NCBI GenBank assembly: GCA_963675595.2
Contig: CAXXLZ010000002.1
Span: 1,600,001 to 1,664,000, forward strand
DNA length: 64,000 nucleotides
DNA from: Thermodesulfobacteriota bacterium
GTDB taxonomy: Bacteria > Desulfobacterota > Desulfarculia > JACQYL01
Direction of reading: 5' to 3'
The position numbers and the translations under genes are program-made. Position 1 is the stretch's first letter, and every line of letters starts with the position of its first letter. The notes under the pieces were generated by a model. It was not told the origin of the DNA. It did not search any database and worked only from the letters and a program-made list of their open reading frames with translations. Positions 18,676 through 64,000 of the stretch are shown here, piece by piece.

Positions 18676-18720
18676 TGGCGCGCCCGGCATGATTCGAACA
18701 TGCGACCTACGGATTCGTAG
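18676..18720 (-). other. att site: displaced 3' fragment of tRNA-Arg(ACG)
   Basis: Minus strand reads CTACGAATCCGTAGGTCGCATGTTCGAATCATGCCGGGCGCGCCA: anticodon loop (ACG), T-arm, acceptor 3' strand and CCA. The 5' half is absent. Confidence 0.88.
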
Positions 18721-18836
18721 AACTGAACTCTCAAGTTTCCAACTTCCTCAATTGAGAGTAACTTTTTGATTTTACAAGAATAGTCGATTCTCAATTTCGG
18801 GCATCTAATTCCGATTTTTGCCGATTTTCCAAAAAG

Positions 18837-18860
18837 TGACACACCAAATGACACACCAAA
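18837..18860. repeat. Direct repeat TGACACACCAAA x2, candidate integrase arm-type sites
   Basis: Perfect tandem 12-mers about 115 bp from the att fragment. Confidence 0.6.
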
Positions 18861-18891
18861 AAGCGCCCGGCGGGAGGTATCACCGGGCGCT
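18858..18891 (-). terminator. Intrinsic terminator
   Basis: AGCGCCCGG/CCGGGCGCT stem followed by a U-tract on the minus strand, downstream of ORF 18926-19297. Confidence 0.6.
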
Positions 18892-18925
18892 GTCAGAACT
18901 CGATCAGGGAGTACTTTCTTCAAGG

Positions 18926-20121: not shown

Positions 20122-20160
20122 GGCGCTTAGAATCATGACAAATTTCAAGCAACATCGAAA

Positions 20161-22044
20161 TATTGATGCCGTCGTAAGAACCCCCCTTTACGAACAGGGC
20201 TGTTTTTTGGAGCATTGGAAGTTCAAGCGGCCATTGCAACACTGCCAAGGTTACTGTCATCGTGACATAGGCTACAAAGACGACGGAAATTATCGTTGCT
20301 GCCTCCCTCTATCGAGTTGGAAAGGGCCTTCTTGGCCTTATCAAGGCGGCTCTGGACGAACCTCTTGATGTTGATGGCCAGGGCCTTCATGAAAACAGAT
20401 AAGGTGACCCGTTTTTTGCCTCGGGTCCACGATCGTTTCAATCCCGTGACCCGATCCGCTTCGGAGATGGTGGCCTCGATGCCGGACCGGATTTTGTAGC
20501 GTTCTTTGAAATCATGGCTTTCCTGCTGTAGTCTGCGCTTGGAGGTCGCCATGTCCTTGCGCTTGTACTTCAGTCGATAATTTCCGCCCTTGATCCGTTT
20601 TACCGGACAGATGGGGAGAAATTCGCATAGGAGACAGTGCTCGCGGGAAAACACGGCTTCCACCGCTTTGCCGCGGTCAACGATCTTGCATTCAAGTGGC
20701 GCGTGCCCCCGGATACAGTAAACGACCTGGGTGCAGTCCTCGTTCGTTTCAAAGTCACTCAACTGCATCTTATTGAGATCCGGCGCTTTTCCGCAAGTCA
20801 CCGGAGCGGTAAGCTCGACTCCGTGCTCGTGAGCTTGAAGGATGTTCTCGCCGCTGCCGTAGCCTGCGTCGGCGAACAACTCTTCGGGTTTGCGGCCCGT
20901 TTCCTCCAGGCGTTCGATAACGGGCATCACGTCTTTCTGGTCGCTGTCATAGGAAGGGGCCACGTCCACATCGGTGATCACCTGGAAGGGATTTTCCTTC
21001 ACGCAGGTCTCCGTGAGGGAAGCCTTATATCCTTTGCCCTTGCGCCCATAGGTGGCGTCGGGATCCGAAGGATTCTGCAGGGAGTCCGCAGGGATTTCCT
21101 TGGGCTTCTCGAGTTCTGTTTTGTCGGGATCTCCCTCGGTGAAACGGCATTGCTCCGACAGTAGTCGGGCCATCAGCCGGTATTCTTTCATTCGGCTGAT
21201 TTCCGGATGACCTCGGAAGCGGTCCACCAGGTCGGCGAGATGGCGGGCGGACTTGTCCAGACGACGCTTGGCCCGCGATGATTTTGCATCGGCAAAATAG
21301 CCTGCGCGCTTCAAGTAGGCCTTGTCGTAAAGTCGGGGCAGTTTCTCATACAACTTGGGATGTTTCTTATGGAGCCGTTTCAAGAACGCCTCGATGGTGC
21401 GCGTAAAGAGCCCCAGACGGCTCAGATGAGCCATGTTGGAAGTGATCTGTGTGGAGTCCAACCGCTGTTTGTCCGTGCTAAGGGCCGCCGTCTCGATGAT
21501 GGCGTCCGTGATTCCGGTAAAGAGGCTCCGCGCTTGCTTGTTGTCGGTAATCAAGGTCCGGAAATTGTGCAGGGTCTTCTGGCAGACGTGAGATTCAAAG
21601 GCGTTGATGTTGAAGGCATATTGCCAACGCAGATCGAAGTCCAGAGCGCCCAAGACTTCCGCATCGGTCAGGCTGTTCATTTCCTTCAAAACACACGCTC
21701 CGACAAGGATGGCCACGGGTCTGTTGGGCCTGCCGTTGTCCTCACAGTAGAAAGGCCGGAAAGACTCCTCATCGATCATGGGAAGCACCAGGCGCCGGAA
21801 CGGACCGGCCCACGTCTTCTCCAACGCCTCGATCCTGTCTGCGGGAAGGCAAATATCGTGGTCGAAAATGGTCTTTTGCGTTCTCTTAGGCCGAAACAAA
21901 ACAACCCCCCTAAGGACCATATTATTAATCAAGTCAGATACTTATCATACAGGACCCAAAAGAAAGGTCAACCCATAAATGCCATTTTTATTCATATTTT
22001 CAACTAGATACCTTTACGGAGAGGTTTTTACGAACTCATCAATA
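20161..22044 (-). mobile_element. Insertion sequence (IS1182/IS5-like)
   Basis: Imperfect terminal IRs TATTGATGccgTCGTAAgAACC / TATTGATGagtTCGTAAaAACC. Confidence 0.8.
20223..21932 (-). CDS. DDE transposase (DUF772 N-terminus)
   Basis: NGRPN, RLDST, DPDATY, ADAGY and YKIRSGIEAT motifs. True start is probably slightly downstream of the track start. Confidence 0.9.
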   Translation of the reverse strand: MINNMVLRGVVLFRPKRTQKTIFDHDICLPADRIEALEKTWAGPFRRLVLPMIDEESFRPFYCEDNGRPNRPVAILVGACVLKEMNSLTDAEVLGALDFDLRWQYAFNINAFESHVCQKTLHNFRTLITDNKQARSLFTGITDAIIETAALSTDKQRLDSTQITSNMAHLSRLGLFTRTIEAFLKRLHKKHPKLYEKLPRLYDKAYLKRAGYFADAKSSRAKRRLDKSARHLADLVDRFRGHPEISRMKEYRLMARLLSEQCRFTEGDPDKTELEKPKEIPADSLQNPSDPDATYGRKGKGYKASLTETCVKENPFQVITDVDVAPSYDSDQKDVMPVIERLEETGRKPEELFADAGYGSGENILQAHEHGVELTAPVTCGKAPDLNKMQLSDFETNEDCTQVVYCIRGHAPLECKIVDRGKAVEAVFSREHCLLCEFLPICPVKRIKGGNYRLKYKRKDMATSKRRLQQESHDFKERYKIRSGIEATISEADRVTGLKRSWTRGKKRVTLSVFMKALAINIKRFVQSRLDKAKKALSNSIEGGSNDNFRRLCSLCHDDSNLGSVAMAA

Positions 22045-22051
22045 TTGTAAA

Positions 22052-23600
22052 CTAGAGTTTAGAGTCTGGCGACCCTTGGTATAGGAAAAGTGCGAATAAA
22101 GACAACAAAGTACTTGACATTGCCGCGCGGATGCGCGGCCGCCTTTGGTGGCCCTTTAAGGAAAGAAACCTTTCCTTGGGGGTCAACCAATGGATTCGAC
22201 GGCTCAAGCACTTATGCTCCTATCGCAGTGGATTTCCTTTCTATTTCAGGCCGTTCCGTGCAGAATCGCTCCGACTCTTCTGGAACTCCTGATGGGATGT
22301 ATGGTCTGCCGCGGCGGCCATATTTCTTCCGCGCTTCTGGCCGTTCGGCCCCAGTTGTCCTGGACCGCCTATTACAAGGCCATCGAAAAGGGCCGATTCC
22401 AATGGCTTGCGCTAGCCCGGCAATGGATGCGCCTGATCCTGAAACGGATTCCAAACCGATCCATCGAGTTCGCCATAGACGACTTCCCTTTGCCCAGATC
22501 GTCCAAGAAAGCTCCCTGCGCCGGTTGGCATTACGATCACGCGCACCGGCCCAACCGCCCCAAATTCCTGTGGGGACAGCTTCGGGTTTCTCTGGCTGTC
22601 ATCTGCCGCCACAAGGGCCGGGTAGCCGCGTTTCCCCTCTTGTTTCGGCTCATCCGCAAGAAAGGGACACCACCAAACTGGACGCAGCGCGGCTCTTGAT
22701 GTCCGTTCTCATGACTTGGCTGCCGGATCGCTTTCTCATTATTCTGCTGCTCGATGCCTGGTATATGAAAGGCTCCCTGGTGCTTCACCTGATTCGCAAA
22801 GGTGTGACGGTCATCGGCCAAGTCCGCAAAGATACGGCCCTGTTCTTGCCTCCGGACAATCCGCCTCCGAAGAAACGGGGCAGACCCAGAAAGTATGGGG
22901 AAAAACTCACGTTGGAAAACATCGGACGATTCTGTCGTCCGGTGGAGAAAACCCTCTTTGCCTACGGCTCGGAACGAGTTTTCCAGTTCTACCAAACCAA
23001 AGCCAAAGTCCGCTTCCTGGACGGCCGGTTGTGCAAGATCGTGTGGTGCCGGTTTATGTCCGACAACCCCTCTTGGTCCGATTGGCATCTTCTGATCAGT
23101 ACCGATCCCGACATGGACGGCGCGGAAGTGATTACACGCTATGCACGACGATGGTGGACCGAGCCCATGTTCAACGAGATCAAGCACCTGTTCGGACTGA
23201 AAAATGCTTGGCAGCAGACACGGCAGACATTGGCTCGATGGAGCATGATCTTGTGCCTGGCCTACGGCTTGCCACGGCTCTTGGCGCTCTGCCTGGGTCC
23301 CAACGCGGCCTATACGATGTTTCCAATCCCTTGGAGAAAGAACAGGCCCGCCACCGCCGGCGGGATGGCCGCAGCCATCGGTCGTCTTTTCGGCAACTTA
23401 AACGTGCGAGCCATGTGGAACCGGAAATCCAAAAAATTCCAACCGGAATTCACCGATTCTCCGGAAAACTTGGGGCGAGCTGCGTGATATCCGTGTTCAG
23501 TCAATCATCTCAAAGCCTTACGTCAACGGTATTCAACCCGTCTTGGAGAACTATGCTCTTCTATACAAACTTGGCTGCCCCGCATGGCTCTAGACTCTAG
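22052..23600 (+). mobile_element. IS4/IS701-like element, copy 1
   Basis: Ends CTAGAGTTTAGAG...CTCTAGACTCTAG; near-identical to 53245-54794; flanks show no target duplication. Confidence 0.88.
22190..23487 (+). pseudogene. IS4/IS701-like transposase, frameshifted
   Basis: One-base deletion at about 22667 (GGG-AC-ACC versus GGG-AAC-ACC in the intact copy). Confidence 0.85.
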
Positions 23601-24040
23601 TTTCGGGGCCAAAAATAGCGGAAACCACCAATTGCCAGACCCCTCTAATTCCTGTATTTTAACAAGATCAAGCGAGTGGTAGTTCTCCGATCGAGGCATA
23701 ATTTCATAAGAAATTGTCAACAATGCCTCACTTTTTTCAGATAATATGAACAATGGCAATGGCAAAGAGTGCCACGATAGCTGCGGTGACCAAGGCCTTG
23801 GTCTTGGTATGTATTTGATGAGAAACGATTGAGTTTGGAGGTCGAGAATCAGGGAGAATGCTGGTCGTTAAGTATGCAAATGAGAAAGGGATTTTGGTGG
23901 GCGAGCGATTGCATAGGGGCGGTCCTTAAATTCAAGATTTACACATGAGCGCCTGTGAAGAGTGCGTAAACCTGCAAAGCTTTTAGAAGGACAGACAAAG
24001 AGAGTTGGCTTTATCATTAAACAAGCGAGGAGTCTTACAA

Positions 24041-25006
24041 ATGAAGAAGTCAGTAGGTTTGTTTATAGGTATCGCGATGATATTGGCTGCTTCTAGTATA
24101 GCTATATCGGCTGATTACTCAGGCAAGAAAGTGTTGTTCATTGACTCTTACCATGAAGGATATGCCTGGAGTGATGGAATAACTCAAGGCATAAAGAGAG
24201 GTATTAATGGTACGGGCGTGGTGTTTAATATCATTAGAATGGACACCAAAAAGAACACTTCGGAAGAGTTTAAAAAAGAATCTGCTAAGAAGGCCAAGGA
24301 GTTCATTGATACCTTCAAACCCGATGTTGTTATTGCCGCCGACGACAATGCTTCTAAGTACCTTGTCATGCCTTATTATAAAGATGCCGCTTTACCTTTT
24401 GTATTCTGTGGTGTGAACTGGGATGCCGGAGTTTACGGCTATCCTTACAAGAATGTGACTGGAATGGTGGAGGTCACTCCGATCCCACAGATTCTTGAAC
24501 AATTGCAGCCCTATGCCAAAGGCAAACGAATAGGCTTTATTGGACCGGACATCCTCACCGCGCACAAGGAAGCCGAAAACTACCGTAAGGTCTTTAACTA
24601 CGAAATCACGGAATTCTATGCAAAGGATTTCGAAGATTGGAAGAAGGGGTTTAAAGAGCTTCAAGGCAAGGTGGATATGCTGATCATCGACAGCGACGGC
24701 GGCCTCTACAAAGATTACTTGGACGAGATGAAGGCCTTTGTGGAAGCGAACACCAAGGTGCCTACGGGTTCGGCTTACGACTTCATGTCGCCCCTGGCAT
24801 TGCTGACCTACGGCAAGGTCGCAGAAGAACAGGGGGAATGGAGCGCTTCGGCGGCTCTTAAGATTCTGGACGGGACGTCACCTTCTGATATTGCCATCGC
24901 CAAGAACGAAAAGGGAACCTTGATAATCAACACCCGGATCGCCAATAAACTGGGAGTAGAGATTCCTTTCTCCATCCTTGAGTCCGCAGACCAGGTGATC
25001 GAGTAG
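24041..25006 (+). CDS. ABC-type substrate-binding protein (sensor-associated)
   Basis: Signal peptide; IDSYHEGYAWS, DDNA, PFVFCGVN and EQGEWSA motifs. Confidence 0.85.
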   Translation: MKKSVGLFIGIAMILAASSIAISADYSGKKVLFIDSYHEGYAWSDGITQGIKRGINGTGVVFNIIRMDTKKNTSEEFKKESAKKAKEFIDTFKPDVVIAADDNASKYLVMPYYKDAALPFVFCGVNWDAGVYGYPYKNVTGMVEVTPIPQILEQLQPYAKGKRIGFIGPDILTAHKEAENYRKVFNYEITEFYAKDFEDWKKGFKELQGKVDMLIIDSDGGLYKDYLDEMKAFVEANTKVPTGSAYDFMSPLALLTYGKVAEEQGEWSASAALKILDGTSPSDIAIAKNEKGTLIINTRIANKLGVEIPFSILESADQVIE

Positions 25007-25133
25007 CCTTGGTCGTTGAATGTGTGCCTGGGATACGACCTATCTTGAGGTTCTTTCCCAGGCTTTCTTTCATTGGAACGTAAGAGACATCCCTGATTCG
25101 ATCCAAAGCTTTATGGTCCAAAAGGAATCAGAT

Positions 25134-27035
25134 ATGAAGTTCGGTCTCAAAACAAAATTTCTTGTACCCGTAATTTCACTAATTATCATTGGGATGGGAA
25201 TTTCGGCATCGATTTCCTATTTCAGAGCTAGGACCGCCCTTCAAGAGGCTTTTAACGGTCAAATGAATCAACTCGTCGACTCAACCCTCAAGTTCGCCGA
25301 ATCCTGGGCGAAAGACAGAAAATCCGACATCAACCTCTTGAGCCAACAAAACATATTCAATACGGCGCTGAAAGATTCATTTGTAGGCAAAGCGGCGAGG
25401 AAGTCGGCGGGCATTTGGCTGAGACAATACAAGGAGGGGTATCAATACTACGAAAATATCTACCTAGCCGATGCCACGGGTGAGATCATTGCTGCTTCGG
25501 CCGAAGATTCAATGACTAATATGAATGTCAAGGATCAGTTGTATTTCCAGAAAGCAATGAAAGGAGATTTCGTAACTTCAGAAGTGTTTGAAAGCCCACA
25601 AACCGGAAACCCGATCCTTGTGATTGCGGCTCCAGTGAAAGAAGGCGAATTGGTTTCCGGCACAGTATTCGGTTTTCTGGACGTCAACTATTTCAGCAAA
25701 CTGTTCGTGGATCCCATTAAAGTGGGAACCACGGGTTACGCATATATTTGTCGAAAAGATGGAATGATCATCGCTCATCCGGACAAAGGTCATATTCTGG
25801 AATTAAACTTAACAGATTTTAATTTCGGTCGTGACATGATGAAATCTGGAAGCGGTCTTATGGTGTACAATTTTGAAGAAGTCGAACAGATTGTAGCTTT
25901 CACAGAATTAGAATCATTGGGATGGATCATTGCTGTTGGTGCGGTCGCGGACGAACTATTCTCTCCGGTAAAATCCCTAAGCTACACGAATGCACTGGTT
26001 GCCCTTTCCGTAGTAGCGCTGGCGGTTTTTTCGATCCTCCTGATCGTTCAATCTATCGTTAAACCTATTAACGGGATGGTATCGGACTTAAATGAGGCGT
26101 CCGAGCAAGTATCCTCCGGCGCGGCCCAAGTATCGAGATCAAGTCATGAACTCGCTGAGGGAGCATCTGATCAGGCGGCGTCCATAGAGGAGACCTCTTC
26201 GTCTCTTGAAGAAATGTCGTCCATGACCAGGCAAAACGCTGAGAACTCGAAACAGGCTGATAACCTTATGACGGAAGTAAAGCAGATTGTCGGTGAAGCG
26301 AATGAATCCATGGGCAGACTGACCGCCTCTATGGATGAGATATTCAGAGCCAGCGAAGAAACATCCAGGATCATAAGAAGTATTGATGAAATCGCCTTTC
26401 AGACCAACTTGTTGGCGTTGAACGCGGCGGTGGAGGCTGCGAGAGCGGGTGAGGCCGGGGCTGGTTTCGCAGTGGTTGCCGATGAGGTAAGAAACCTTGC
26501 CATGAGGTCCACGGAAGCGGCAAAAAACACCGCTGCCCTAATCGAGGGTACAAGGAAGAAAGTAAAAGAAGGTTCGGCATTGGTGAACAGCACCAACGAA
26601 GCTTTTTCCAGGGTGGCTGACGGCTCCGGACGAGTGGCGGCATTGGTGGGCGAAATTGCAGCCGCATCCAATGAACAGGCTCAAGGGATAGAGCAAATCA
26701 ATAAGGCGGTAACCGAAATGGACAGAATCGTTCAAAGAACGGCCGCCAATGCGGAAGAGTCCGCTTCAGCATCCGAACAAATGAATGCTCAAGCAAGGCA
26801 GATGACAACCGTTGTGGATGAACTCGTGATTTTAGTCGGTACGAAGGAAAATCATAAGAAGCCGGATAGAAAAGAAAAGCTTGGTCATGAACATACTCAG
26901 AAGATGGACAAGGTATATCGAGTCGTTTCCCCGGTTGAAGGACGAAAGAAGATAGACGAGGTTGTAGCTCCGAAGCCCAAAAAAGTGTCGTCTGAAAAGC
27001 TGATCTCTCTGAACGAGGATTCCCAAAGAAAATAG
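25134..27035 (+). CDS. Methyl-accepting chemotaxis protein with Cache domain
   Basis: TM-Cache (GYAYI..IIAHPD)-TM architecture plus [34 protein letters not shown]. Confidence 0.95.
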
Positions 27036-27042
27036 ACTTCAG

Positions 27043-27299
27043 GGTGCAAGTTGAACCTTGACCAAGCGGATGTGCTTATCGCTCTTCTGGACGGCCCGCA
27101 GGTTGACGACGGAACAGCCTGGGAGATCGGCTACTTCTTTTCGATCAGGGAGCGGTCAAGAATTATCGGGATCAGGACTGATGTCCGGAACGCCGGAGAG
27201 TCCAGTAACTCCGTTGTCAATGCGATGATCGAAATGTCCTGTGGGCGGGTTGTCCGGTCGGTGGAGGAGCTTCTGGAGACGCTGTCGGCAATGATCTGA
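27043..27299 (+). pseudogene. Nucleoside 2-deoxyribosyltransferase, 3' fragment
   Basis: ADVLIALLDGPQVDDGTAWEIGY..RTDVRNAGE..VNAMI; the YLAGP N-terminus is missing. Confidence 0.8.
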
Positions 27300-31949: not shown

Positions 31950-31951
31950 CT

Positions 31952-34875: not shown

Positions 34876-34877
34876 AA

Positions 34878-54794: not shown

Positions 54795-54832
54795 TAAGGA
54801 AAAGAAAACATCACCAAAAACTGAAACTGAAA

Positions 54833-54915
54833 GTTCCACCGGAAACTTTCCCTCTCTCAAAATCCGGTTCACTTTCAAGTGACAACAGGAATTTGCACCG
54901 AAAACTATTTATAGA
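54833..54915 (+). promoter_or_regulatory. ORB-like boxes and BRE-TATA-like motif upstream of cdc6
   Basis: GTTCCACCGGAAAC at 54833-54846; GTCACTTGAAA on the minus strand at about 54873-54883; CCGAAAAC-TATTTATAG at 54898-54914. Confidence 0.5.
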
Positions 54916-56476: not shown

Positions 56477-57292
56477 ATGGAATGCGGAATACCGGAACCG
56501 GCTCACTCTGGCCAACACTCAGCAATAGTCTTGGACTTGGAAGAGCCGGAGGCGGCCGTCGGCCGGATTATCTGGGAGTTTGTCTTCGGCGTTGCTCAAT
56601 ACAAGGCGTCGGCCCGAGACTACTACTATGACGTTATGCTGGCGGATCATCCGTGTCCTGTTTGCGGCGAAAATCTGCGGATGCTTGAACCCGGTTCGGC
56701 GGCCTGTGCAAGCGGTCATGAACTCGACCCCACAGTGGTGTTTCAAAAGAGCGGCTGCTGCGGAGCAAAGCTGGTCAGGCGGTGTCTTCATTATGCGTGC
56801 GCTTCTTGTGGGAAGACCGTGCCGTCCCGGTTCTTGTTCGATGAACGGGTCTTCGACAAGGTCTATTTCCGGCAACGGATGGCGGAGTCCAGGGCCAAGA
56901 CGATAAAACGAAAAGAAATGATAAGGCTCGCCCGTCGAGAAGAGCGGTCGCGCGGGTTGACGTTACTGGAGGAACCGCAGCTTGATCGTTTGCCTGGTTT
57001 TACTGAAGCGTTGGCAGGCTTCATCGGCTTTGATGTGGGAGTTTGGGACGAGGAGTTCTCCCTGACTGGGAATCTTCCTGGGCTGTCCCGGTACAGACGC
57101 CATATCCTGGATTCAGTGAACAGGTATCGACAAATCATGTTTTCCAGGATCGATCTCCTGATCGATGATGCCCGAAGAGATCGGGCGATGCGCTTTGTCG
57201 CTCTGATCTTTCTGCTTCAGGATGGGGAAGTGCGGGTCACACAATACAGTTCGGATATTGAAATCGAGCCGCCCTACAATGAAATTGACTGA
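56477..57292 (+). CDS. Multi-Zn-ribbon protein with ScpA/kleisin-like C-terminal motif
   Basis: CPVCG, CASGH, SGCCG and CASCG; C-terminal RFVALIFLLQDGEVRVTQ..DIEI. Confidence 0.65.
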   Translation: MECGIPEPAHSGQHSAIVLDLEEPEAAVGRIIWEFVFGVAQYKASARDYYYDVMLADHPCPVCGENLRMLEPGSAACASGHELDPTVVFQKSGCCGAKLVRRCLHYACASCGKTVPSRFLFDERVFDKVYFRQRMAESRAKTIKRKEMIRLARREERSRGLTLLEEPQLDRLPGFTEALAGFIGFDVGVWDEEFSLTGNLPGLSRYRRHILDSVNRYRQIMFSRIDLLIDDARRDRAMRFVALIFLLQDGEVRVTQYSSDIEIEPPYNEID

Positions 57293-57647
57293 AAAGGACA
57301 AGGAGTTCATTGAAAAACTGAAAATGCTGATCGACGATAGTGATCTCAAGATTGAGCTGACGGAAAACGGCCTGAAGCGGTTCGTGTTGCGCAGAAATTA
57401 CGGCGACAAAATCGAACGGATTTTTGGATTAACGCGCCAGGGAATCAGGTGGCGGTTCCAGCGGCTGCTGGGAGATATCTACGTTTCTGCGTACACCACG
57501 ATCTATTGGGTTGAGAGCCTGTTAGGGACAGAACTCAGAACGATGGCGCTCGAGATCGCAAAGCAAAGGGTCGAACTTCGAAAGAAAGCCCTGAAAAGGA
57601 CTGGATGCAATAAGTTGGCCTTCGTCCAGCGCCGGCACAAGAGGTGA
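57279..57647 (+). CDS. Hypothetical HTH-like protein
   Basis: IERIFGLTRQGIRWRFQRL; overlaps the upstream stop. Confidence 0.65.
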   Translation: MKLTEKDKEFIEKLKMLIDDSDLKIELTENGLKRFVLRRNYGDKIERIFGLTRQGIRWRFQRLLGDIYVSAYTTIYWVESLLGTELRTMALEIAKQRVELRKKALKRTGCNKLAFVQRRHKR

Positions 57648-57650
57648 TGC

Positions 57651-58067
57651 CTGATCGTCAGCACAAAAATCGAACTCAGTCATAACAAGATCGCGAGAAT
57701 CCGGGACCTGGATGAACTCGCTGCTATCCTATTCCCCGGCAACAAGAATCATCAGAGAGTTTTTCTCGCAATCTTCATCGAACTCAAGTACGCTGAGCAT
57801 GAATTTCTAGACACTCTTCAGCCGTTGTGCGACAAATACGGTTTTTCACCGAGAATCCTCGAAACCGTCCGAAGCAAGATGCGGCGTATGGGGCTCATCG
57901 ATCACGTTTCCCGATTCAACAAGCGGCACGGCTATCGGGAAGGATGGGTTTTTTCCAGCAGGTTTGGGAAGTCATTGGAACAGCTTGCCGGCATCGCGGC
58001 GTCGGCCAGAGAGCGTAAAGGCGTGATGCAGGAGAAGAAGGACCGGGGGTTGTTTCGCCTCATGTAA
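57651..58067 (+). CDS. Hypothetical wHTH-like protein (non-ATG start)
   Basis: Frame is open from CTG 57651 after GAGGTG; SPRILETVRSKMRRMGLI..GWVFS. Confidence 0.6.
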   Translation: MIVSTKIELSHNKIARIRDLDELAAILFPGNKNHQRVFLAIFIELKYAEHEFLDTLQPLCDKYGFSPRILETVRSKMRRMGLIDHVSRFNKRHGYREGWVFSSRFGKSLEQLAGIAASARERKGVMQEKKDRGLFRLM

Positions 58068-58204
58068 TTGATACTTTTGGGAAAAACTTCCGCATAGGGG
58101 GTCTTATCAGATGTCTTATGAGGCATGAGCCGCTGAATGGATTTCATAGGTTGGAGTATCCTGCCTTCGAATAGACCATTACCCTCTAATTCCAGAAAAG
58201 CGAT

Positions 58205-60778
58205 ATGAGAATCACCTTCGACCCTGCTTTTGATCAAGGTTCCTGGCCCGGCCCAATCGCACAAGGCCACGCCGCATCCGGTGAAATCTGGTTAGGGCCC
58301 TCCGGCCTTTTGAGCATCCTTGAGACCATGACCGGTCTGGCCGGCCCCACCCTGCCTCCCGCAGTCAGGGCTGCCGAATTGGTTTCGGAAGTCCGAAGCA
58401 TCAAGGGCTTCTGGAAAGACTCCGCTCAGGTGGACCCTTTCGGGACCGCAAGGAGGCTCTTGGAGTGGCGCGATTTTCTTTGGACACAAGGTTGGCGCGG
58501 CCAACCGGTCAGCCTGCGGCTGGAGCAATTGGCGGAGGTTACCTACAAGGCCTCGCCCGGTTTTCCCGATCGGTTTCTTGAGGTAGCAGGAACCATGCAG
58601 GGTGCCGCCAATGTGATTGAGGCACTCACACTTCTCGTTCCGGTTGGTCGTCTGAATCCCGCATTGCGGACAGCAGTGCAGGCTCTTGAGCGGACGGGAA
58701 CCAAAGTCATCGAGAAGACCTTGGAACCGGCCTCACCAAAGGGCGACTTGGGCGCATGCAGAACAGTGCCCTTCAGACCCATAGGGGATGGATCCCTTCA
58801 ATTGCTGCGGCCCGCCACTCACAGCATGGCCGCCCACGAACTGGCCGCTTGGCTCTCCAATCTTGAGTCACTGGAACGTACAGTCATTATCGGTCCCGAC
58901 AGCGTGCTTGACGAGGCACTCCATCGATTTGATCTGCCCACGACGGGCGCAGGCATACCAGCCTCCGATCATGCCTTGCTTCAGATTCTGCCCCTGACTC
59001 TGGCCATGGCCTGGGATCCGCCTGATCCTCAGAGGGCTCTCGAACTCCTGATGTTGCCCAACAGCCCCGTTCCCAAAGGGATCGGTCGCAGGTTGGCTCA
59101 TGCGCTGCAGGATTATCCCGCGGTGGGATCGGATGCCTGGAATGAAGCACTGGAAGAAGGTCTGAACCAGTTCTCAGACAAGAAAGATCGGAAGCGCTTG
59201 AAAGACCGAATGGATGCCATCTTTGCGAGGCGCATCCAAAGCCGGAATTATCCGGTGACCGAGATCAAGGCTCGGATCGATCTTCTCCGATCCTGGGCCA
59301 AAGGCAGGATGGGGGAGGATGCGTCGGAACGTGCATGGCAGGCTCTGATCGCTCAGTTGGAGAACTGCATGCGCATTGCCGAGCTATCGGGCCTTTCTCA
59401 CTTCACTGCTCCACAGATACGCCGAATGCTTTATGAGATCAACGAGGCGGCGGGCTCTTTTCCTCTTTACGAGGCCCAAGCAGGTTTGGAAACCGTTGGG
59501 GCGCCGGAGTGCATCGCTGAACAAGCGCAGAATGTGATTTGGTGGTCGTTCAATCGGGGCGCCGCGCCGGTCATAGCTTCCGACATGCTTACCGCCAAGG
59601 AACGTTCAGGGCTTGAGCAAGTAGGCGTTGTACTCCCTCGCCCGGGTGATGAAGCCGTGTGGGCCGCGGAGAGATGGCAACGGCCTCTCATGCTGGCGGG
59701 TTCAAATCTGATTCTCGTCTGTGCTCGGCGAGGCCCCGACGGTGAAGAGCAATATCCGCACCCATTGTGGGACGAGCTTGCCGGTCGGGTCGAGGAATCC
59801 ACGGGTTTGAAGGAATTGGAGCGTGAATTCCTGATTTCCCATAACGGGCTTACCAGGACCATTCGGCCGATCAGGAGCCTTCCCGAGCCCGTATGGGAAT
59901 GGGGCGTTATTGCGGGTGCCGTGGCCAAAAGACCGAAGGAGTCACCCAACAGTCTGTCGAGTTTGATTTCCTGCCCGTTCAGTTGGGTCGTTCGCTATTT
60001 GGGCAACCTATATGGCGGGGCTACGGCCACTTTGGATTCGCCCGAAAAACTGCAAGGCCGGCTCATACACGAGATACTCACCCGCGTCCTTTCCAATCCC
60101 GGCCAAACCCCCGAAGAAGCTGCCGATGATGCAACCCTGCGTTTTGGTTCGGAAGGACCGCTCATGGCCGCTCAACTCTTCTTGCCCGGCTACGAAGATA
60201 TTCGAGCGGAGGTGAAAATGGCTCTCCGCACAGCGGCTCATCGAGTATTTCGTTTGATCAAGGAAGGAAGATTCACGGTACGAGCCGTCGAACAGACCTA
60301 TGCTACGAAATCCCGTTCCCTGGGAATAGAGATTGAAGGCCGACCCGACTTGGTACTGAAGAACCCGGACGCAATCGTCGATTTCAAGCGCGGCGGAGTC
60401 AATTATCGTAAGGAAGAGCTGGCCGGCGGCACAAGCCTCCAATTAGCCGTATACGGTCATTTGATTCGGAAGAATGAAAAGACGACCTTTCCTCCTGTTG
60501 CCTATTTGATGCTCAAATCCGGTCAGGTGATCACGGTGGACCCCAAGGCCTTTCCGGACGCACGGATCATTGGAGGTCCTTCACCCGAAGAGACTTGGAA
60601 GGGGACTCAGGAGTCCTTTAAGCGGATTTGGGATGAAATGAAGGCTGGCAAAGTACGGGCATCGGGAAACGATCCCGACGGCCCTCCAAAGAGTCAACTC
60701 GACGATGGACGACTTTTTCTGAAGCCCTGCGAATTCTGCGACTTCGCCGTTCTTTGTGGTCGGGCCTTCAGCGAATAG
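58205..60778 (+). CDS. AddB-like inactive helicase + PD-(D/E)XK nuclease
   Basis: SPNS..SCPF, GRLIH, GRPD, VDFK, LQLAVY and CEFCDFAVLC (Fe-S staple pattern). Confidence 0.85.
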   Translation: MRITFDPAFDQGSWPGPIAQGHAASGEIWLGPSGLLSILETMTGLAGPTLPPAVRAAELVSEVRSIKGFWKDSAQVDPFGTARRLLEWRDFLWTQGWRGQPVSLRLEQLAEVTYKASPGFPDRFLEVAGTMQGAANVIEALTLLVPVGRLNPALRTAVQALERTGTKVIEKTLEPASPKGDLGACRTVPFRPIGDGSLQLLRPATHSMAAHELAAWLSNLESLERTVIIGPDSVLDEALHRFDLPTTGAGIPASDHALLQILPLTLAMAWDPPDPQRALELLMLPNSPVPKGIGRRLAHALQDYPAVGSDAWNEALEEGLNQFSDKKDRKRLKDRMDAIFARRIQSRNYPVTEIKARIDLLRSWAKGRMGEDASERAWQALIAQLENCMRIAELSGLSHFTAPQIRRMLYEINEAAGSFPLYEAQAGLETVGAPECIAEQAQNVIWWSFNRGAAPVIASDMLTAKERSGLEQVGVVLPRPGDEAVWAAERWQRPLMLAGSNLILVCARRGPDGEEQYPHPLWDELAGRVEESTGLKELEREFLISHNGLTRTIRPIRSLPEPVWEWGVIAGAVAKRPKESPNSLSSLISCPFSWVVRYLGNLYGGATATLDSPEKLQGRLIHEILTRVLSNPGQTPEEAADDATLRFGSEGPLMAAQLFLPGYEDIRAEVKMALRTAAHRVFRLIKEGRFTVRAVEQTYATKSRSLGIEIEGRPDLVLKNPDAIVDFKRGGVNYRKEELAGGTSLQLAVYGHLIRKNEKTTFPPVAYLMLKSGQVITVDPKAFPDARIIGGPSPEETWKGTQESFKRIWDEMKAGKVRASGNDPDGPPKSQLDDGRLFLKPCEFCDFAVLCGRAFSE

Positions 60779-60848
60779 GGGCGGTGAAAATTTCTTCCTT
60801 TCCCGGCTAAGCTTCAAAGAGCGAGCCCTTTATAAGGTACTGATGATC

Positions 60849-63800
60849 ATGACCAACATCCATATCATCACCGCCAGTGCGGGCAGCGGCAAGACCTATC
60901 GCCTGGCAACGCTTCTTCATCAAAGCATTGCTTCCGGGAGTGTGCGGCCGGAAGCGGTGATTGCCACGACCTTTACGAAGAAGGCGGCAGCCGAACTACA
61001 GGAACGCGTGCGCCGTAGGCTTATCCGAGAAGGGCTCACAGTGGAGGCCAACCGATTGGGGGCCGCGCGCATGGGAACGGTCAACGCCGTCTGCAGCAGG
61101 CTCGTGATGGATTTCGTCTTTGAGAAAGGGCTCTTTGCCGAGACCGTTGTCTTGGACGAAAACGCGGCAGGCAGGGAGCTCAGGCGTGCTCTTTCCTCTG
61201 TTGTATCGGGCAGTGTTTCGGCCCGCATGGCGGAACTCTCCAGCAGACTTGAAGCCTTTGAGTGGACCGGCGTTGTGGAGTCCCTGATTCAATCCGCTAG
61301 GTTTAACGGACTGAAGGAAGCCGACTTAAAAGCATCCAAGCAAAAAAGCATCAAAAGCATAAGCCAATTGATCGGAAAGCCCTTGGGTCCCGACCGAGAT
61401 TTCGACGGCGAACTCCAGACCGCTCTTTCTGATTTCATCCGCAGTGTTGACTTGGAGGAAGACCAGACCGGTGGTACCGCAGGAGCGGTTCAGAAGGCTG
61501 AGGCCTGCTTGAGCAGGCTTCGCGAGGGACGGCCTCTCCCCTGGAGCGATTGGTTGCGATTGGATCGCATTAAGGTAGGCAAGAAATCAGCGGTTCATGC
61601 GGAGCAACTTCGACAGGTGGCGGCACTTCACGACAATCACCCAAATCTCAGGAAGGATCTGACCGAAGCCGTCGAGCTCGTTTTCGACACGGCCATCAAC
61701 GCACTCAAATCCTATCAGGAGCATAAACGACTTTGGGGTGTCATGGATTTCTCCGATCAGGAAGTTCTGGCACTTGAGCTTCTCCAAGAAAAGGAAGTCG
61801 TGGACCGGTTGAGTGACGCCATAGATATCCTTCTCGTGGATGAGTTTCAGGATACAAGTCCAATCCAGTTGGCTATCCTTCTACGTTTGGCGTCACTGGC
61901 CAAGAAGACGATCTGGGTCGGAGACCAGAAGCAGTCGGTCTATGGTTTTCGCGGGACGGATCCGGCCCTGATGGATTCGTGTATTCAGCACATCTTTCAG
62001 GATCATGCTCCGGAAACCTTGAACAAGTCATGGCGAAGCCGACCGCCCCTTGTACACGTCAGTTCGGCGGTTTTTGCCCGTGCCTTTGCATCACACGGCA
62101 TCCCTGAAGAACGGGTAATGTTGGAGCCCGCCTTGGAATCGGATGATCCTGAATTGGGGCCTTGTATCGAATGGTGGGAAACCGCCTCAAAGAACCAGTC
62201 AGAGGACGCATCGGCCGTTGCAGGCGGAGTTCGTGATCTTCTCCGCGACGATGAAGTGAAGGTCAGAGACAAAAAAGAAGGGAAAACAAGGCGGATAAGG
62301 CCCGGAGATATCGGCATCCTCTGCCGAACAAACGACGCTTGCGCAAAAATGGCCGAAGCGCTGGAATCCATTAATATCCGGGCGGTGCTTCCCAAAGCGG
62401 GACTCATGAAAACGCTGGAAGCGATGACCGTGCAAGCGGGTCTACGGTTGTGGGTCGATCCGAAGGATACCCTTGCAGCCGCCGAACTGGCGCGGATCAT
62501 TCACTACCCGGACAAATCCGATGAGTGGTTGAAGCAGTTGCTCGAAAAGCCGGGAGCAGAGGCATTTGGGCAGCTGCCCGAAGCCGCCGATATTGTGAAT
62601 TCCGCTCGGGAGAAACCCGGTAGCGGCGTTCTTCAGGTACTCGATGCCGTCTACAGGATCATCGATATTCGTGAACTATGTCTCGCTTGGGGTGATGCGC
62701 CCAAAAGGCTGGCAAATCTGGATGCGCTATCGGCCCATGCCCGGAGTTACATCGCCTATTCGGCCGCCGAAGGGATCGGTTGCACGCCTGCGGGACTGCT
62801 CGGGTATTTCAATGAACTGGCTGCCAACGAGGAAGATTCGCAGGCACAGCTGGCCGTTGAGGACGCGGTTAACGTGGTGACCCTGCACAGCGCCAAGGGC
62901 CTGGAATGGCCGGTTACAATTCTGACCCAGATCGGAAAGAAATTCGAGCCGAACCCTCTCGGAGTAAAGGTCATAAGCGACTGGACGAATTTCGACATCA
63001 ACAATCCATTGGCCGATCGTTGGCTTCGTTACTGGTTGTTTCCTTACCATCCAAAAAACAAGGAGACGCCCTTTAACTGCCGAATGGAAGAAGATGCTTC
63101 AATGCCGGGAATCAAAGACAGTCACCAGAGGCAGGAACTTCGGCTCCTTTATGTGGCGTGGACCCGTGCAAGGGATCGTTTGATCTTGGCGGGACGAAAA
63201 GACGATTTTAGGGAAGGTATCCTTGGGCTGTTGAACGACGAAAAGGGCGCATGGCTGCTTTCAGAGCCCCAACACGGCAAGGCCGTATGGGCCGGACAGG
63301 AGCTGGAAATACATACCCGCGCGCTCGATCCTGTTGAACCTGAAACCCGATCGTTTGCTCAAGGACAAGATTACCCGATCGTCACCGGAAGTCGGACTCA
63401 TTTTCCCTCAAGGCTCAGCCCATCATCCATGGACGCGCAAGGCAAGGCGGGTCAACTGATTCAGATCGGTCCTAGAATTCCCATTTCAGGAAATCCGGAC
63501 ATGGAATCGGTCGGGAACGCCTTTCACTACTTCTTTGCCGCCGATCGTCCACAATATGAATTAAAGCAGCGAATGGCCCTGGCTGAGGGAATCATAAAGC
63601 GTCTGCAAATCACCGGTGCTGTAATCGGCTCGGATATTGTCGAATCCGCAGACAACCTGGCTATCTGGGCCAATCAGGAATACCCCGAGGCTGTATGGCG
63701 CAGGGAGTGGCCCCTTATCCAACGTCTGCCTGAAGGCACTGTTGTATCGGGATTCTGCGATCTCCTGCTCAACGCCGGAAACAGGATAGCCGTGATCGAT

Positions 63801-63968
63801 CACAAAGCGTTTGCCGGCAACAAGAATGACGCTGCAATCAAAGCTGCCGAATTCTTCGGCCAGCTTAAGGCTTATCGGGACATTCTACAAAGCCTGAACG
63901 GTAACGCCGACATTGCCTGTTACATTCATTATCCGATTTCAGGTCTTCTGGTCGAAGTAGGTCCCTAG
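60849..63968 (+). CDS. AddA/RecB-like UvrD helicase-nuclease
   Basis: ASAGSGKT, TFTKKAA, VDEFQD, VGDQKQSVYGFRG, TLHSAKGLEW, LYVAWTRAR; C-terminal GFCDLL..IDHK. Confidence 0.92.
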   Translation: MTNIHIITASAGSGKTYRLATLLHQSIASGSVRPEAVIATTFTKKAAAELQERVRRRLIREGLTVEANRLGAARMGTVNAVCSRLVMDFVFEKGLFAETVVLDENAAGRELRRALSSVVSGSVSARMAELSSRLEAFEWTGVVESLIQSARFNGLKEADLKASKQKSIKSISQLIGKPLGPDRDFDGELQTALSDFIRSVDLEEDQTGGTAGAVQKAEACLSRLREGRPLPWSDWLRLDRIKVGKKSAVHAEQLRQVAALHDNHPNLRKDLTEAVELVFDTAINALKSYQEHKRLWGVMDFSDQEVLALELLQEKEVVDRLSDAIDILLVDEFQDTSPIQLAILLRLASLAKKTIWVGDQKQSVYGFRGTDPALMDSCIQHIFQDHAPETLNKSWRSRPPLVHVSSAVFARAFASHGIPEERVMLEPALESDDPELGPCIEWWETASKNQSEDASAVAGGVRDLLRDDEVKVRDKKEGKTRRIRPGDIGILCRTNDACAKMAEALESINIRAVLPKAGLMKTLEAMTVQAGLRLWVDPKDTLAAAELARIIHYPDKSDEWLKQLLEKPGAEAFGQLPEAADIVNSAREKPGSGVLQVLDAVYRIIDIRELCLAWGDAPKRLANLDALSAHARSYIAYSAAEGIGCTPAGLLGYFNELAANEEDSQAQLAVEDAVNVVTLHSAKGLEWPVTILTQIGKKFEPNPLGVKVISDWTNFDINNPLADRWLRYWLFPYHPKNKETPFNCRMEEDASMPGIKDSHQRQELRLLYVAWTRARDRLILAGRKDDFREGILGLLNDEKGAWLLSEPQHGKAVWAGQELEIHTRALDPVEPETRSFAQGQDYPIVTGSRTHFPSRLSPSSMDAQGKAGQLIQIGPRIPISGNPDMESVGNAFHYFFAADRPQYELKQRMALAEGIIKRLQITGAVIGSDIVESADNLAIWANQEYPEAVWRREWPLIQRLPEGTVVSGFCDLLLNAGNRIAVIDHKAFAGNKNDAAIKAAEFFGQLKAYRDILQSLNGNADIACYIHYPISGLLVEVGP

Positions 63969-64000
63969 CTCAAGGGCATCCTGAATTCAACCATGACCCT

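Follow-up and report, generated by a model that had tools for sequence, protein, structure and literature searches.

An archaeal-style orc1/cdc6 gene and an adjoining origin-like region belong to the conserved core of a family of integrative elements in a bacterial genome, which is very unusual for a bacterium. One of these elements extends into the window, the whole stretch of 64,000 nucleotides analysed here. Window positions 18721-64000 are the tRNA-distal half of element A, a single 93.4-kb integrative element (C2:1618721-1712092, C2 being the contig that holds the window) between 45-bp direct repeats of the 3' end of tRNA-Arg(ACG). Four such elements, diverged paralogues of one another, occur in the genome, each at a different tRNA gene. 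We consider it rather probable that excised circles of this tRNA-borne family would replicate as plasmids from the Cdc6/ORB-like origin.

The sequence-only reading had proposed an element anchored at tRNA-Arg, with an att fragment at 18676-18720 whose orientation placed the intact tRNA at higher coordinates. Its advice to look downstream for a matching att, the tRNA and an integrase proved sound, and all three were found at C2:1710910-1712168. The fragment, on the minus strand, is the 3' 45 nt of tRNA-Arg(ACG), from the anticodon loop to CCA. The exact 45-mer occurs three times in the 6.79-Mb genome, at C2:1571114, C2:1618676 (window 18676) and C2:1712093. The last copy is the 3' end of an intact tRNA-Arg(ACG), c[1712093..1712168], located 93.4 kb to the right of window 18676 and 48 kb past the window end. 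ARAGORN found no whole tRNA in the window. A tyrosine integrase of 386 aa (C2:1710910-1712070; Phage_integrase, 2.4e-22) lies 22 bp from the intact tRNA. The att copies, the intact tRNA and the integrase to the right together define the DNA from 18721 onward as one integrative element. Contigs from public runs X1-X4 end at the att repeat, and synteny around the insertion site is lost in relatives.

Three further relatives of element A are integrated in the same genome at tRNA-Val, tRNA-Phe and tRNA-Arg(TCG) (elements V, F and R), each flanked by tRNA repeats of 45-48 bp. The four elements total about 390 kb. The integrase of element A is 76% identical to that of V and 52-53% identical to that of R. 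About 28 backbone genes are common to all four, including cdc6, the nuclease-HerA pair, RadC, DUF2958 and AAA-DUF1257-DUF2997-DUF3150. Pfam annotation covered 40 window proteins and bore out the Cdc6, HerA, Zn-ribbon proteins, RadC, DUF2958, AAA cluster and AddAB-like pair listed earlier. The features of the window, apart from the origin-like region, are as follows (strand given where assigned).

1-18675: right part of island B, outside element A (from att copies and Pfam)
18676-18720, minus strand: att copy at the junction of island B and element A, exact 45-mer match, three per genome
19723-20121, plus strand: 132-aa gene at the tRNA-distal end of all four elements, 91-92% amino acid identity
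20159-23602: two IS copies, IS5/IS1182-like (20159-22042) and degenerate DDE_5, IS701-like (22051-23602), by Pfam, with many genomic copies
24041-27299, plus strand: cargo, namely an ABC substrate-binding protein, a dCache methyl-accepting chemotaxis protein (MCP) and a deoxyribosyltransferase fragment (Pfam)
28662-29751: backbone genes of 68 aa and 184 aa, common to the four elements
30849-34200, minus strand: copy-specific cargo with no counterpart in V, F and R, namely radical-SAM-like (366 aa), 204-aa and vWA (545 aa) proteins
34414-37749, plus strand: backbone genes of 153 aa and 53 aa, PD-(D/E)XK (Cas4-like) nuclease (35036-35806) and HerA/DUF87 ATPase (35803-37749)
37959-39958, plus strand: backbone genes of 99 aa and 106 aa, RadC (38682-39137), 93-aa Zn-ribbon protein (39219-39500), 62-aa gene and DUF2958 (39647-39958)
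39935-41766, minus strand: IS4-like insertion sequence
41851-43188, plus strand: backbone 97-aa gene and AAA ATPase exon 1 (from 42265; AAA profile positions 1-69 of 131)
43189-45753, plus strand: group II intron within the AAA gene, with RT/maturase ORF (43804-45660) and domain V (45660-45749)
45754-47772, plus strand: AAA exon 2 (profile positions 77-130 of 131), DUF1257, DUF2997 and DUF3150 (Pfam)
48700-51797, minus strand: cargo, namely an ankyrin-repeat protein and an inositol-monophosphatase + ADP-ribosylglycohydrolase fusion
52530-52859, minus strand: backbone 109-aa gene
54941-56209, plus strand: orc1/cdc6, 422 aa (AAA+, lid, C-terminal winged helix)
56477-58067, plus strand: genes after cdc6, namely a 271-aa protein (a pair of Zn ribbons, and a winged helix at the C terminus), a 122-aa protein and an ORF of 59 aa
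58205-63968, plus strand: cargo, namely AddB-like (PD-(D/E)XK, 857 aa) and AddA-like (UvrD helicase, weak C-terminal nuclease match, 1041 aa) proteins

No Pfam or PHROG family matched the 68-aa and 184-aa backbone genes. AAA, DUF1257 and DUF2997 span 42265-46807 (Pfam). The group II intron, whose limits were taken from a tandem copy in element F, sits at an identical site in all four elements, and its RT is 100% identical. The trio after cdc6 (271-aa gene at 56477-57292) is kept across orders. The cargo at 48700-51797 stands in place of four backbone genes retained in V, F and R. The vWA/PflX, AddAB-like, MCP and Ank genes are not supported as core and are cargo found in element A alone. WYL regulators and a restriction-modification cluster also belong to this copy-specific cargo, with the MCP, the vWA trio and the AddAB-like pair. 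Element A further contains eight IS copies and one group II intron. The domain content of the AddAB-like pair fits AddAB (Pfam and PADLOC domains), and the pair lies within a 17-kb segment with a 96% identical copy at C2:4705694-4723314.

Judged by its domains and structural matches, the Cdc6 of the element is a true, full-length Orc1/Cdc6. Pfam detected Cdc6_C (1.6e-24), Cdc6_lid and AAA_22. Full-length matches, winged helix included, were obtained to 2qby_A (4e-52, Sulfolobus Orc1-1) and 2v1u_A (3e-51). The best PDB matches are the initiators Orc1-1 and ORC1 and not Orc1-3. The Walker A and B columns of the alignment are invariant. Among the four copies, dN/dS of cdc6 is 0.03 at dS 0.275, the lowest of the 23 computable backbone genes, which indicates that cdc6 is kept functional under strong purifying selection.

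The region upstream of cdc6 has a regular layout. An ORB-like box is followed by about 100-130 bp at 80-95% AT, an inverted ORB-like box, about 90 bp and a third box at the cdc6 start codon. In element A, the following features are found.

53082-53103, plus strand: distal ORB-like box, 25.3 bits
53160-53243: left part of the AT-rich stretch (candidate duplex-unwinding element), with the family-wide motif ttctatatagaaataaataat
53244-54795, minus strand: IS701-like (DDE_5) insertion in the AT-rich stretch, with a 9-bp target duplication (taaggaaaa)
54831-54852, minus strand: proximal ORB-like box, 28.6 bits, opposite in orientation to the distal box
54935-54956, plus strand: third ORB-like box, across the cdc6 start codon
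35277-35298, plus strand: extra ORB-like box, 23.8 bits, within the nuclease gene

The array is present in the genome's own copies and at loci whose Cdc6 is 59-64% identical. The 22-nt box matrix was built only from 26 boxes at nine loci of other genomes. The four best matches to this matrix in the whole own genome all lie upstream of cdc6, and 12 of the 19 matches of at least 19.9 bits fall inside the four origin regions. A metagenome scan relied on just two boxes, the proximal and the start box. In 24 of its 80 loci, the start box coincides with the beginning of a Cdc6 homologue (42-67% identity). The distal box, which was not part of the search, was present together with the AT-rich stretch in 20 of the 22 such loci with at least 300 bp upstream. 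One box overlaps the cdc6 start codon in all 18 usable loci, and the AT maximum over 60 bp is at least 0.82 in 16 of them. The full box pair is missing from loci L017 and L019, and GC skew does not switch at the origin-like site. The box core TTCCKGTGGAA agrees at 10 of 11 positions with the euryarchaeal ORB core given in PMC1868953. A GGG run lies about 5-7 nt 5' of the GTGGAA half, whereas the archaeal consensus in that source has it 3' of the half at about 9 nt; no G-string occurs at this consensus position beside the dyad in the element boxes. The TATA-like motifs of the sequence-only reading are real as AT-rich motifs, but they belong to this region and not to an archaeal expression core. 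The AT-rich stretch could be just the cdc6 promoter. Together, Orc1/Cdc6, the ORB-like boxes and the AT-rich stretch resemble an archaeal-type origin module, with a putative origin function.

In the mechanism that we favour, the integrase would excise the element as a circle, which would replicate as a plasmid from the origin upstream of cdc6. Cdc6 would bind the boxes, open or mark the AT-rich stretch and recruit a helicase. Since host and element both lack MCM, this helicase would be either the DnaB of the host or an ATPase encoded by the element, for example HerA. The best match to the MCM profile PF00493 reached 35.6 bits over a partial profile, with none inside the elements. Such matches are read as weak AAA cross-matches; each of the 14 control genomes, among them E. 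coli, has partial matches of this kind too. The host has DnaA and DnaB. By Pfam, the backbone has no primase, polymerase or replicative helicase. The earlier observation that relaxase, T4SS and capsid genes are missing extends to the whole genome for four Pfam families, with zero matches to the VirB4, coupling protein and relaxase profiles (PF03135, PF02534 and PF03432) and to the HK97-type capsid profile PF05065. Among 10 backbone proteins searched against PHROGs, the sole match was the HerA P-loop to a terminase family. With an IS splitting its origin-like AT-rich stretch, element A is by now probably no more than a passively inherited copy. The more specific proposal, that bacterial elements replicate from a true archaeal-type origin (Orc1/Cdc6, ORB and DUE) in hosts with DnaA/DnaB and without MCM, is advanced tentatively.

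An alternative that we judge unlikely is that the Cdc6-like protein is a DNA-binding regulator, either an autorepressor or a switch of excision/maintenance genes. The boxes would then be operators and the AT-rich stretch a promoter. The box over the start codon resembles autoregulation, and neither MCM nor another replicative helicase is available. The extra box within the nuclease gene, upstream of HerA, would also suit a regulator; it is found in the same place in all four paralogous elements and is missing from locus L016. In archaea, one Orc1 paralogue is not an initiator but a regulator (PMC9738581). However, inverted boxes around such an AT-rich stretch beside the initiator gene are the layout of archaeal origins (PMC1868953, PMC4010727), and the structural matches favour initiators over Orc1-3. 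The cdc6 promoter is overlapped by the origin in archaea too, so autoregulation and origin function are mutually compatible.

It is highly improbable that the region is a pile of independent elements or a decayed defence island in which cdc6 with the AddAB-like pair, or nuclease-HerA, are defence systems. Many IS copies and defence-type cargo (a DUF4391-SNF2-methylase-Res cluster and WYL regulators) are present, and PADLOC returned weak HerA and mad8 matches. A second island, B, is also integrated in tandem. It is unrelated to A and occupies 47.5 kb (C2:1571159-1618675), up to the leftmost 45-mer copy 47.5 kb left of window 18676. Island B carries a P4-like primase-helicase (15696-17597) and a NusG paralogue (10338-10844) in the window, as well as glycosyltransferase/radical-SAM polysaccharide genes; the part left of the window holds the island's integrase and a C25 peptidase of 1784 aa. 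The suggestion of several tandem elements is correct only as regards island B on the left of the att copy, whereas 18721 to the tRNA is one element, with neither a further att copy nor a second integrase inside. Its backbone is collinear with V, F and R end to end, one copy of each gene, from the 132-aa end gene through the integrase. Purifying selection acts on the backbone genes, V, F and R lack the AddAB-like pair, and Cdc6 matches no PADLOC system except through P-loop matches.

The family is patchily distributed. The search for the Cdc6 marker was positive in 2 of 40 relatives and in 3 of the 400 genomes that sample the phylum, with 2-4 copies in each close match. By this marker, element A is not core genome of the relatives, as the sequence-only reading had allowed it might be. 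In relative L019, a homologous integrase adjoins tRNA-Arg. The nuclease-HerA block (153 aa, 53 aa, nuclease and HerA) is present in L016 and L042. The conserved linkage proposed earlier stands for cdc6 and HerA, which recur together in distant relatives, but not for vWA/PflX, found only in element A. Among named records, the family is confined to Thermodesulfobacteriota and deltaproteobacterial records, where the close Cdc6 homologues are 59-69% identical. This points to an old bacterial lineage and not to a recent cross-domain shuttle. No close relative of the element Cdc6 was found among PLSDB bacterial plasmids and no relative on IMG/VR contigs; the family has thus never been seen there as a free replicon. 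The proposed mixture of an archaeal-type replication module with bacterial plasmid/ICE accessory genes survives, in the form of RadC, DUF2958 and AAA-DUF1257-DUF2997-DUF3150. Scarcely credible is its extension to an element class that now passes between archaea and bacteria of anaerobic consortia and is built on an archaeal replication/expression core. Initiator and origin layout are of archaeal type, and a weak lead is the mixed bacterial/archaeal cluster that the Atlas lists for the 392-aa membrane protein. But the close named homologues are all bacterial and archaeal proteins only about 27-33% identical, the remaining backbone has bacterial plasmid relatives, G+C (0.45-0.57) is close to that of the host (0.56), and neither an archaeal promoter nor archaeal expression genes turned up.

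Initiation of replication and loading of the helicase in bacteria are generally regarded as separate from, not interchangeable with and not homologous to those of archaea and eukaryotes. If the more specific proposal of a true archaeal-type origin holds, rewiring has enabled an Orc1/Cdc6 initiator to load either a bacterial helicase or a HerA-type motor encoded by the element, a natural hybrid of two otherwise non-homologous initiation systems. An archaeal-style initiator and origin-like module under strong selection in a widespread bacterial mobile-element family makes it testable what Orc1/Cdc6 loads or recruits without MCM. The module is also a compact candidate replicon for genetic tools in sulfate-reducing/syntrophic bacteria, which are hard to handle. 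A full-text literature search found no paper describing this large tRNA-borne family, which standard ICE, prophage and plasmid finders would miss.

Bacterial tRNA-borne islands and integrative mobilisable elements (P4-like, e.g., island B) share with element A the 45-bp tRNA 3' duplication, an integrase at one end, a cargo/IS mosaic, tandem accretion at one tRNA and the lack of an own transfer apparatus. Their replication, if any, relies on a primase-helicase, as in island B, or a Rep protein, and no bacterial tRNA-borne island is known to use Orc1/Cdc6. Archaeal integrated plasmids and elements with orc1/cdc6 (for example those of Thaumarchaeota in PMC6563490, and haloarchaeal plasmids) are similar to element A in their tyrosine integrase, tRNA-gene att sites, large variable cargo and Orc1/Cdc6 as the sole recognisable replication gene. 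Element A differs in its bacterial host with DnaA/DnaB and without MCM, its accessory backbone of bacterial plasmid type and its divergent Cdc6. In archaeal chromosomal origins (PMC1868953, PMC4010727), the initiator gene likewise abuts the origin, and TTCC-N3-GGAA dyad boxes are repeated and inverted around an AT-rich stretch (DUE), with a short G/C run beside each box. The array of element A, with its putative activity, has only three boxes, one of them on the start codon, and its G/C run flanks the dyad on the opposite side and at a shorter distance than in the archaeal consensus. ICEs share site-specific integration and RadC/DUF2958/DUF3150-type accessory genes, whereas the genome of element A lacks VirB4, coupling protein and PF03432 relaxase. 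On the Ca. Manganitrophus plasmid CP114559.1, the module adjoins ParB and PRTRC genes in a segment without cdc6, and its AAA gene is uninterrupted (481 aa), whereas that of element A is split by the group II intron. Nevertheless, this plasmid carries RadC-AAA-DUF1257-DUF2997-DUF3150 in the same order as element A, with a DUF3150 that is 39% identical.

The source genome (6.79 Mb, 56% G+C, three contigs including C1 and C2) is that of a bacterium, because it encodes tmRNA, DnaA, and a canonical DnaB. tRNA-Pyl and tRNA-SeC are also encoded. Read on the minus strand, window 18676-18720 is the 3'-terminal 45 nt of a tRNA (anticodon loop through CCA), and no complete tRNA lies within the 64-kb window. 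This 45-mer has exactly three genomic copies, at C2:1571114, C2:1618676 (window 18676), and C2:1712093, and sequence identity between the copies ends at the repeat limits. The copy at C2:1712093 forms the 3' end of an intact tRNA-Arg(ACG), c[1712093..1712168]. A 386-aa tyrosine integrase is encoded at C2:1710910-1712070, and its gene ends 22 bp from this tRNA. The sequence-only reading had called 18676-18720 an att fragment oriented toward an intact tRNA at higher coordinates. This was correct, and the matching att, tRNA-Arg, and integrase that it proposed to look for downstream are all present (tRNA at C2:1712093-1712168). Two units are delimited by the three att copies:

C2:1571159-1618675, 47.5 kb, island B, taking in window 1-18675
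C2:1618721-1712092, 93.4 kb, element A, beginning at window 18721

The window region under study is the tRNA-distal 45 kb of element A. Island B is unrelated to A and adjoins it in tandem, using the same 45-bp att site. Its integrase, distinct from that of A, has 408 aa and is only 30% identical to the latter over 238 aa. Island B encodes a P4-like CHC2-primase/AAA_25 helicase, a NusG paralogue at the head of a glycosyltransferase/B12-radical-SAM polysaccharide cluster, and a C25 peptidase of 1784 aa with F5/8 type C and He_PIG Ig domains.

The gene on the right flank of A has orthologues in three related genomes (G001, G003, and G004; 53-56% identity), and synteny is lost at such distance. 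In the two relatives inspected, where synteny is lost, no tRNA lies beside this orthologue. Four public runs of one study contain the att junction region; in two of the four, just 14-19% of its words are present. No RNA run was listed as containing it. Contigs from these four runs end inside the att repeat, and the loose ends there come from other tRNA-Arg genes. A joint in these contigs that skips 14478 reflects a paralogous element, V. Other integrase relatives are found in the genome. A C-terminal remnant with 60% identity lies at C2:3101685-3101975 beside tRNA-Gln(CTG), with an IS701-like copy adjoining, and may be the relic of a fifth element. A second relative (34% identity) lies at C1:1346783-1347592 beside tRNA-Asp.

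Genome self-comparison and a search for tRNA 3'-end repeats revealed three paralogues of A, each flanked by a repeat beginning in the anticodon loop:

C2:868070-998372, 130 kb, element V, at tRNA-Val(TAC), 45-bp repeat
C2:4229956-4305482, 75.5 kb, element F, at tRNA-Phe(GAA), 48-bp repeat; its integrase is interrupted by an IS
C1:1402489-1494192, 91.7 kb, element R, at tRNA-Arg(TCG), 48-bp repeat

Genes called with a simple in-house caller were compared by blastp. About 28 genes are common to A, V, F, and R, collinear and in a single copy per element. From the distal att end (window 18676) to the tRNA end, this backbone reads:

132-aa distal-end gene
68 aa, 184 aa
153 aa, 53 aa, PD-(D/E)XK nuclease, HerA
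99 aa, 106 aa, RadC, Zn-ribbon protein, 62 aa, DUF2958
97 aa, AAA ATPase (split by a group II intron), DUF1257, DUF2997, DUF3150
109 aa
Cdc6, then 271 aa, 122 aa, 59 aa
392-aa membrane/coiled-coil protein
80-aa membrane protein, integrase

Mean dS among the four backbones is about 0.16-0.43; therefore, the relationship between the four elements is old, and they do not stem from recent duplication. Purifying selection acts on nearly all backbone genes, and Cdc6, whose four genomic copies share 98-100% amino-acid identity, has the lowest dN/dS (0.03 at dS 0.275). The borders of A, its nature as a single element, and a four-member family with a common backbone are thus established.

The AAA gene of the backbone is split. 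Positions 1-69 of the Pfam profile lie in ORF 42265-43212 and positions 77-130 in ORF 45750-46232, with an RT/maturase/HNH ORF between the two halves and a group II intron domain V at 45660-45749 (Rfam). Both halves are constrained, with dN/dS of 0.06 and 0.13, and an uninterrupted homologue of 481 aa is found on a plasmid. In each of the four elements the intron occupies the identical AAA site, and F has two copies in tandem:

window 43189-45753, copy in A
C2:913177-915033, site in V
C2:4282185-4286602, site in F
C1:1429571-1431427, site in R

The RT is 100% identical despite flanks that differ by 3-8% at the same site, which suggests recent retrohoming between the paralogous elements.

Cargo differs among the elements. 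Between cdc6 and DUF3150, V, F, and R have a PRiA4_ORF3 protein, a LuxR-type response regulator, and two small proteins; in A this set is replaced by ankyrin and ADP-ribosylglycohydrolase cargo. Also specific to A are an ABC-binding protein with an MCP, a radical-SAM-like/204-aa/vWA trio, an AddAB-like pair with two WYL regulators, ARPP-1, GGACT, and a double-AAA ATPase, PLD and helicase fragments, a DUF4391-SNF2-methylase-Res cluster, and a second HerA. The AddAB-like group, together with DUF6693, makes up a 17-kb segment running from window 58200-64000 on to C2:1675516. A second copy at 96% identity lies outside the four elements near the end of contig C2 (C2:4705694-4723314). The DUF4391 cluster, to the right of the window at C2:1688330-1698208, includes an SNF2-family helicase (1090 aa), an N6/N4 methylase (629 aa), a Res-type endonuclease-helicase (1023 aa), and a small SMC_N-like protein. 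This cargo resembles a restriction-modification or defence module. PADLOC assigned no defined defence system to the Cdc6, 271-aa, 122-aa, vWA, or radical-SAM proteins.

Element A holds eight IS copies in a genome rich in them (about 25 near-identical IS3-like and more than 20 IS5/IS1182-like copies). In contigs of all four public runs, base 22044 of the IS5/IS1182-like element at window 20163-22044 is joined to base 20163 with one letter between, which is either a circle junction or a tandem dimer. Head-to-tail copies of this IS type occur at C2:3852917-3856686.

The Cdc6 protein has AAA_22, Cdc6_lid, and Cdc6_C domains. It aligns over its full length, including the winged helix, with Sulfolobus Orc1-1 (2qby_A, 4e-52) and Aeropyrum ORC1 (2v1u_A, 3e-51), and more poorly with Orc1-3 (1.5e-32). 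As judged from domains, alignments, and substitution rates, the gene encodes a genuine and constrained Cdc6. Surveys of AAA+ proteins have recorded isolated Orc/Cdc6 homologues in bacteria. Among 8000 candidates scored from a 5.8-billion-protein collection, at least 787 relatives were found at E <= 0.001. The best 120 of these 787 are 61-93% identical, and where an organism is named it is Thermodesulfobacteriota or 'delta proteobacterium NaphS2'. A contig scan of genomes confirmed at least eight cdc6 loci, with titles of Desulfatiglandales, NaphS2, Desulfopila, Desulfosarcina variabilis, Desulfarculaceae, and unclassified Thermodesulfobacteriota or deltaproteobacterial records. In an all-against-all comparison of representatives, identity declines over the values 55%, 48%, 42%, and 41% to a plateau of about 30-35%. 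The intermediates of 41-55% are all metagenome proteins, and the sole named cluster on the plateau is Acidilobus Orc1/Cdc6. In PLSDB, Cdc6 matches 417 plasmids, all below 32% identity, and every plasmid among the matches listed is archaeal. No contig in IMG/VR encodes a relative. The distribution is patchy and multi-copy: cdc6 is found in two of 40 relatives (two copies each) and in three of 400 other genomes of a phylum sample (two copies, four copies, and one weak match).

Upstream of cdc6, copies R, F, and V and loci of other genomes have a common layout. A forward ORB-like box with the consensus G(G/A)G(A/T)A(A/G)AT(T/G)TCC(G/T)(A/G)TGGAA is followed by about 100-130 bp whose AT content peaks at 82-95% over 60 bp; the genomes themselves have 40-58% G+C. 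This stretch has the common motif ttctatatagaaataaataat. Then come an inverted copy of the box, about 90 bp, and a third forward box that contains the start codon. Copy A has the same array with an insertion:

53082-53103, distal box
about 53160-53243, left part of the AT-rich stretch
53244-54795, IS701-like element with terminal inverted repeats and a 9-bp target duplication (taaggaaaa)
after the IS, the rest of the AT-rich stretch
54831-54852, proximal box
54935-54956, start-codon box

The IS701-like element is a simple insertion into an array that is otherwise intact.

Conservation was assessed in a census with a strict 9-nt core, for which 18 of 20 listed loci were usable (one duplicate, one truncated). 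The start-codon box is present in all 18 and all three boxes in eight. In six more, the distal and start boxes match and the proximal box deviates by one or two mismatches. The AT maximum is at least 0.82 in 16 of the 18, and the distal/proximal pair is missing from two loci (L017 and L019). In a first independent test, both strands of the source genome were scanned with a 22-nt matrix built from 26 boxes in nine loci of other genomes. Sequence upstream of the four cdc6 genes contains the top four matches and five of the top six. Of the 19 matches at 19.9 bits or more, 12 fall in the four origin regions, four in nuclease genes, and three elsewhere; the one of these three that was inspected (C1:940283) lies in ordinary G+C-rich coding sequence. 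The nuclease-gene matches are one conserved site, present once per element. It is an ORB-like box of 23-24 bits across the elements, at 35277-35298 in A, inside the PD-(D/E)XK nuclease gene just upstream of HerA, with the same site in V, F, and R. It is not conserved in a Desulfosarcina relative (L016), and may be lineage-specific or a chance match.

In a second independent test, metagenomes were scanned with the proximal and start boxes as the sole pattern. At least 120 stretches matched, with about 100 chance matches expected by our own estimate, and 80 were fetched. In 24 of the 80, a Cdc6 homologue (42-67% identity) begins at the start box. The distal box and AT-rich stretch were absent from the search pattern; 20 of the 22 Cdc6 loci with at least 300 bp upstream have both, the distal box lying at -193 to -346 and the AT-rich stretch between the boxes. 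Several loci are near-duplicates, which leaves about 13 distinct variants. At the level of sequence, these results show a conserved box-AT-box array.

The array would be an origin used after excision of the element, and Cdc6 would recruit a helicase other than MCM. Across the whole genome, MCM (PF00493) gave only weak partial AAA matches, as in E. coli, and none inside the elements. The backbone is without a primase, polymerase, or replicative helicase, and none of the helicase candidates near cdc6 in relatives is common to the whole family. Elements R and F have a KaiC-like ATPase near cdc6, and the R copy is a weak DnaB_C match. The main rival explanation casts Cdc6 as a regulator of its own promoter. 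The regulator and origin readings are not mutually exclusive.

No match to VirB4, a T4SS coupling protein, a PF03432 relaxase, or an HK97 capsid was found in the whole genome, bearing out for these families the sequence-only impression that relaxase, T4SS, and capsid genes are lacking. Ten backbone proteins searched against PHROGs gave nothing viral except one P-loop match. A different gene set is seen in a Desulfatiglandales relative (L012), whose cdc6 operon lies between these genes:

L012:652-4809, HNH/SIR2_2/HerA (DUF87) trio
L012:14512-15441, Replic_Relax (PF13814) protein

The HerA partner therefore varies within the family, and a relaxase-like gene may sometimes be carried.

The order of cdc6 followed by the 271-aa, 122-aa, and 59-aa genes recurs in five loci elsewhere (L012, L013, L016, L033, and L084). 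In L016 and L042, cdc6 has the 153-aa/nuclease/HerA block nearby, and L042 has DUF2958 as well. Of the cdc6, HerA, vWA, and PflX synteny once proposed, the cdc6-HerA link holds, and the vWA and PflX links do not, the vWA trio being specific to copy A. The 392-aa membrane protein has homologues in L012, L013, L033, L042, and L061. An integrase with 50% identity faces tRNA-Arg(CCG) in L019, with the layout seen in A. The 271-aa protein combines two conserved Zn ribbons with a winged helix at its C-terminus (AF2 pLDDT 79). A likeness to the kleisin (ScpA) C-terminal domain, hinted at by Foldseek and the Atlas, is not specific. In a wide VIA search, many unrelated winged-helix proteins match residues 199-271 equally well (Z 8-9.5), so only 'winged helix' is kept. 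The 122-aa protein has an AF2 model with a mean pLDDT of 54, too low for a structural search. The 392-aa protein matched no family and has a low Atlas recognition score; hydropathy predicts about four membrane helices and a coiled coil.

The accessory backbone is bacterial as judged by its relatives. For HerA, six bacterial plasmids have relatives, all distant (25-29% identity). DUF3150 has its best plasmid relatives (39% identity) on Ca. Manganitrophus plasmids, where JAB/RadC, a hypothetical gene, AAA, DUF1257, DUF2997, and DUF3150 follow in the same order as here; that module adjoins ParB and PRTRC genes. Current exchange between archaea and bacteria had been proposed. The evidence is against recent cross-domain traffic, as the names among the listed close Cdc6 relatives are bacterial only. 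The module resembles the product of an old event in which a bacterial element lineage captured an archaeal initiator and origin. We found no description of such elements in the article texts searched.

The boxes can be compared with archaeal origins. The euryarchaeal ORB consensus, as quoted in PMC1868953, is GTTCCAGTGGAAAC-AAA----GGGGG, and the core of the boxes here, TTCC(G/T)GTGGAA, agrees with that ORB core at 10 of 11 positions. A related genome (G027) has a further box with an exact TTCCAGTGGAA upstream of the start-codon box. Each box is flanked by a G run on the side facing away from the AT-rich stretch. Relative to the central asymmetry of the dyad, this run is on the opposite side from the G-string of that euryarchaeal consensus (PMC1868953), and closer.
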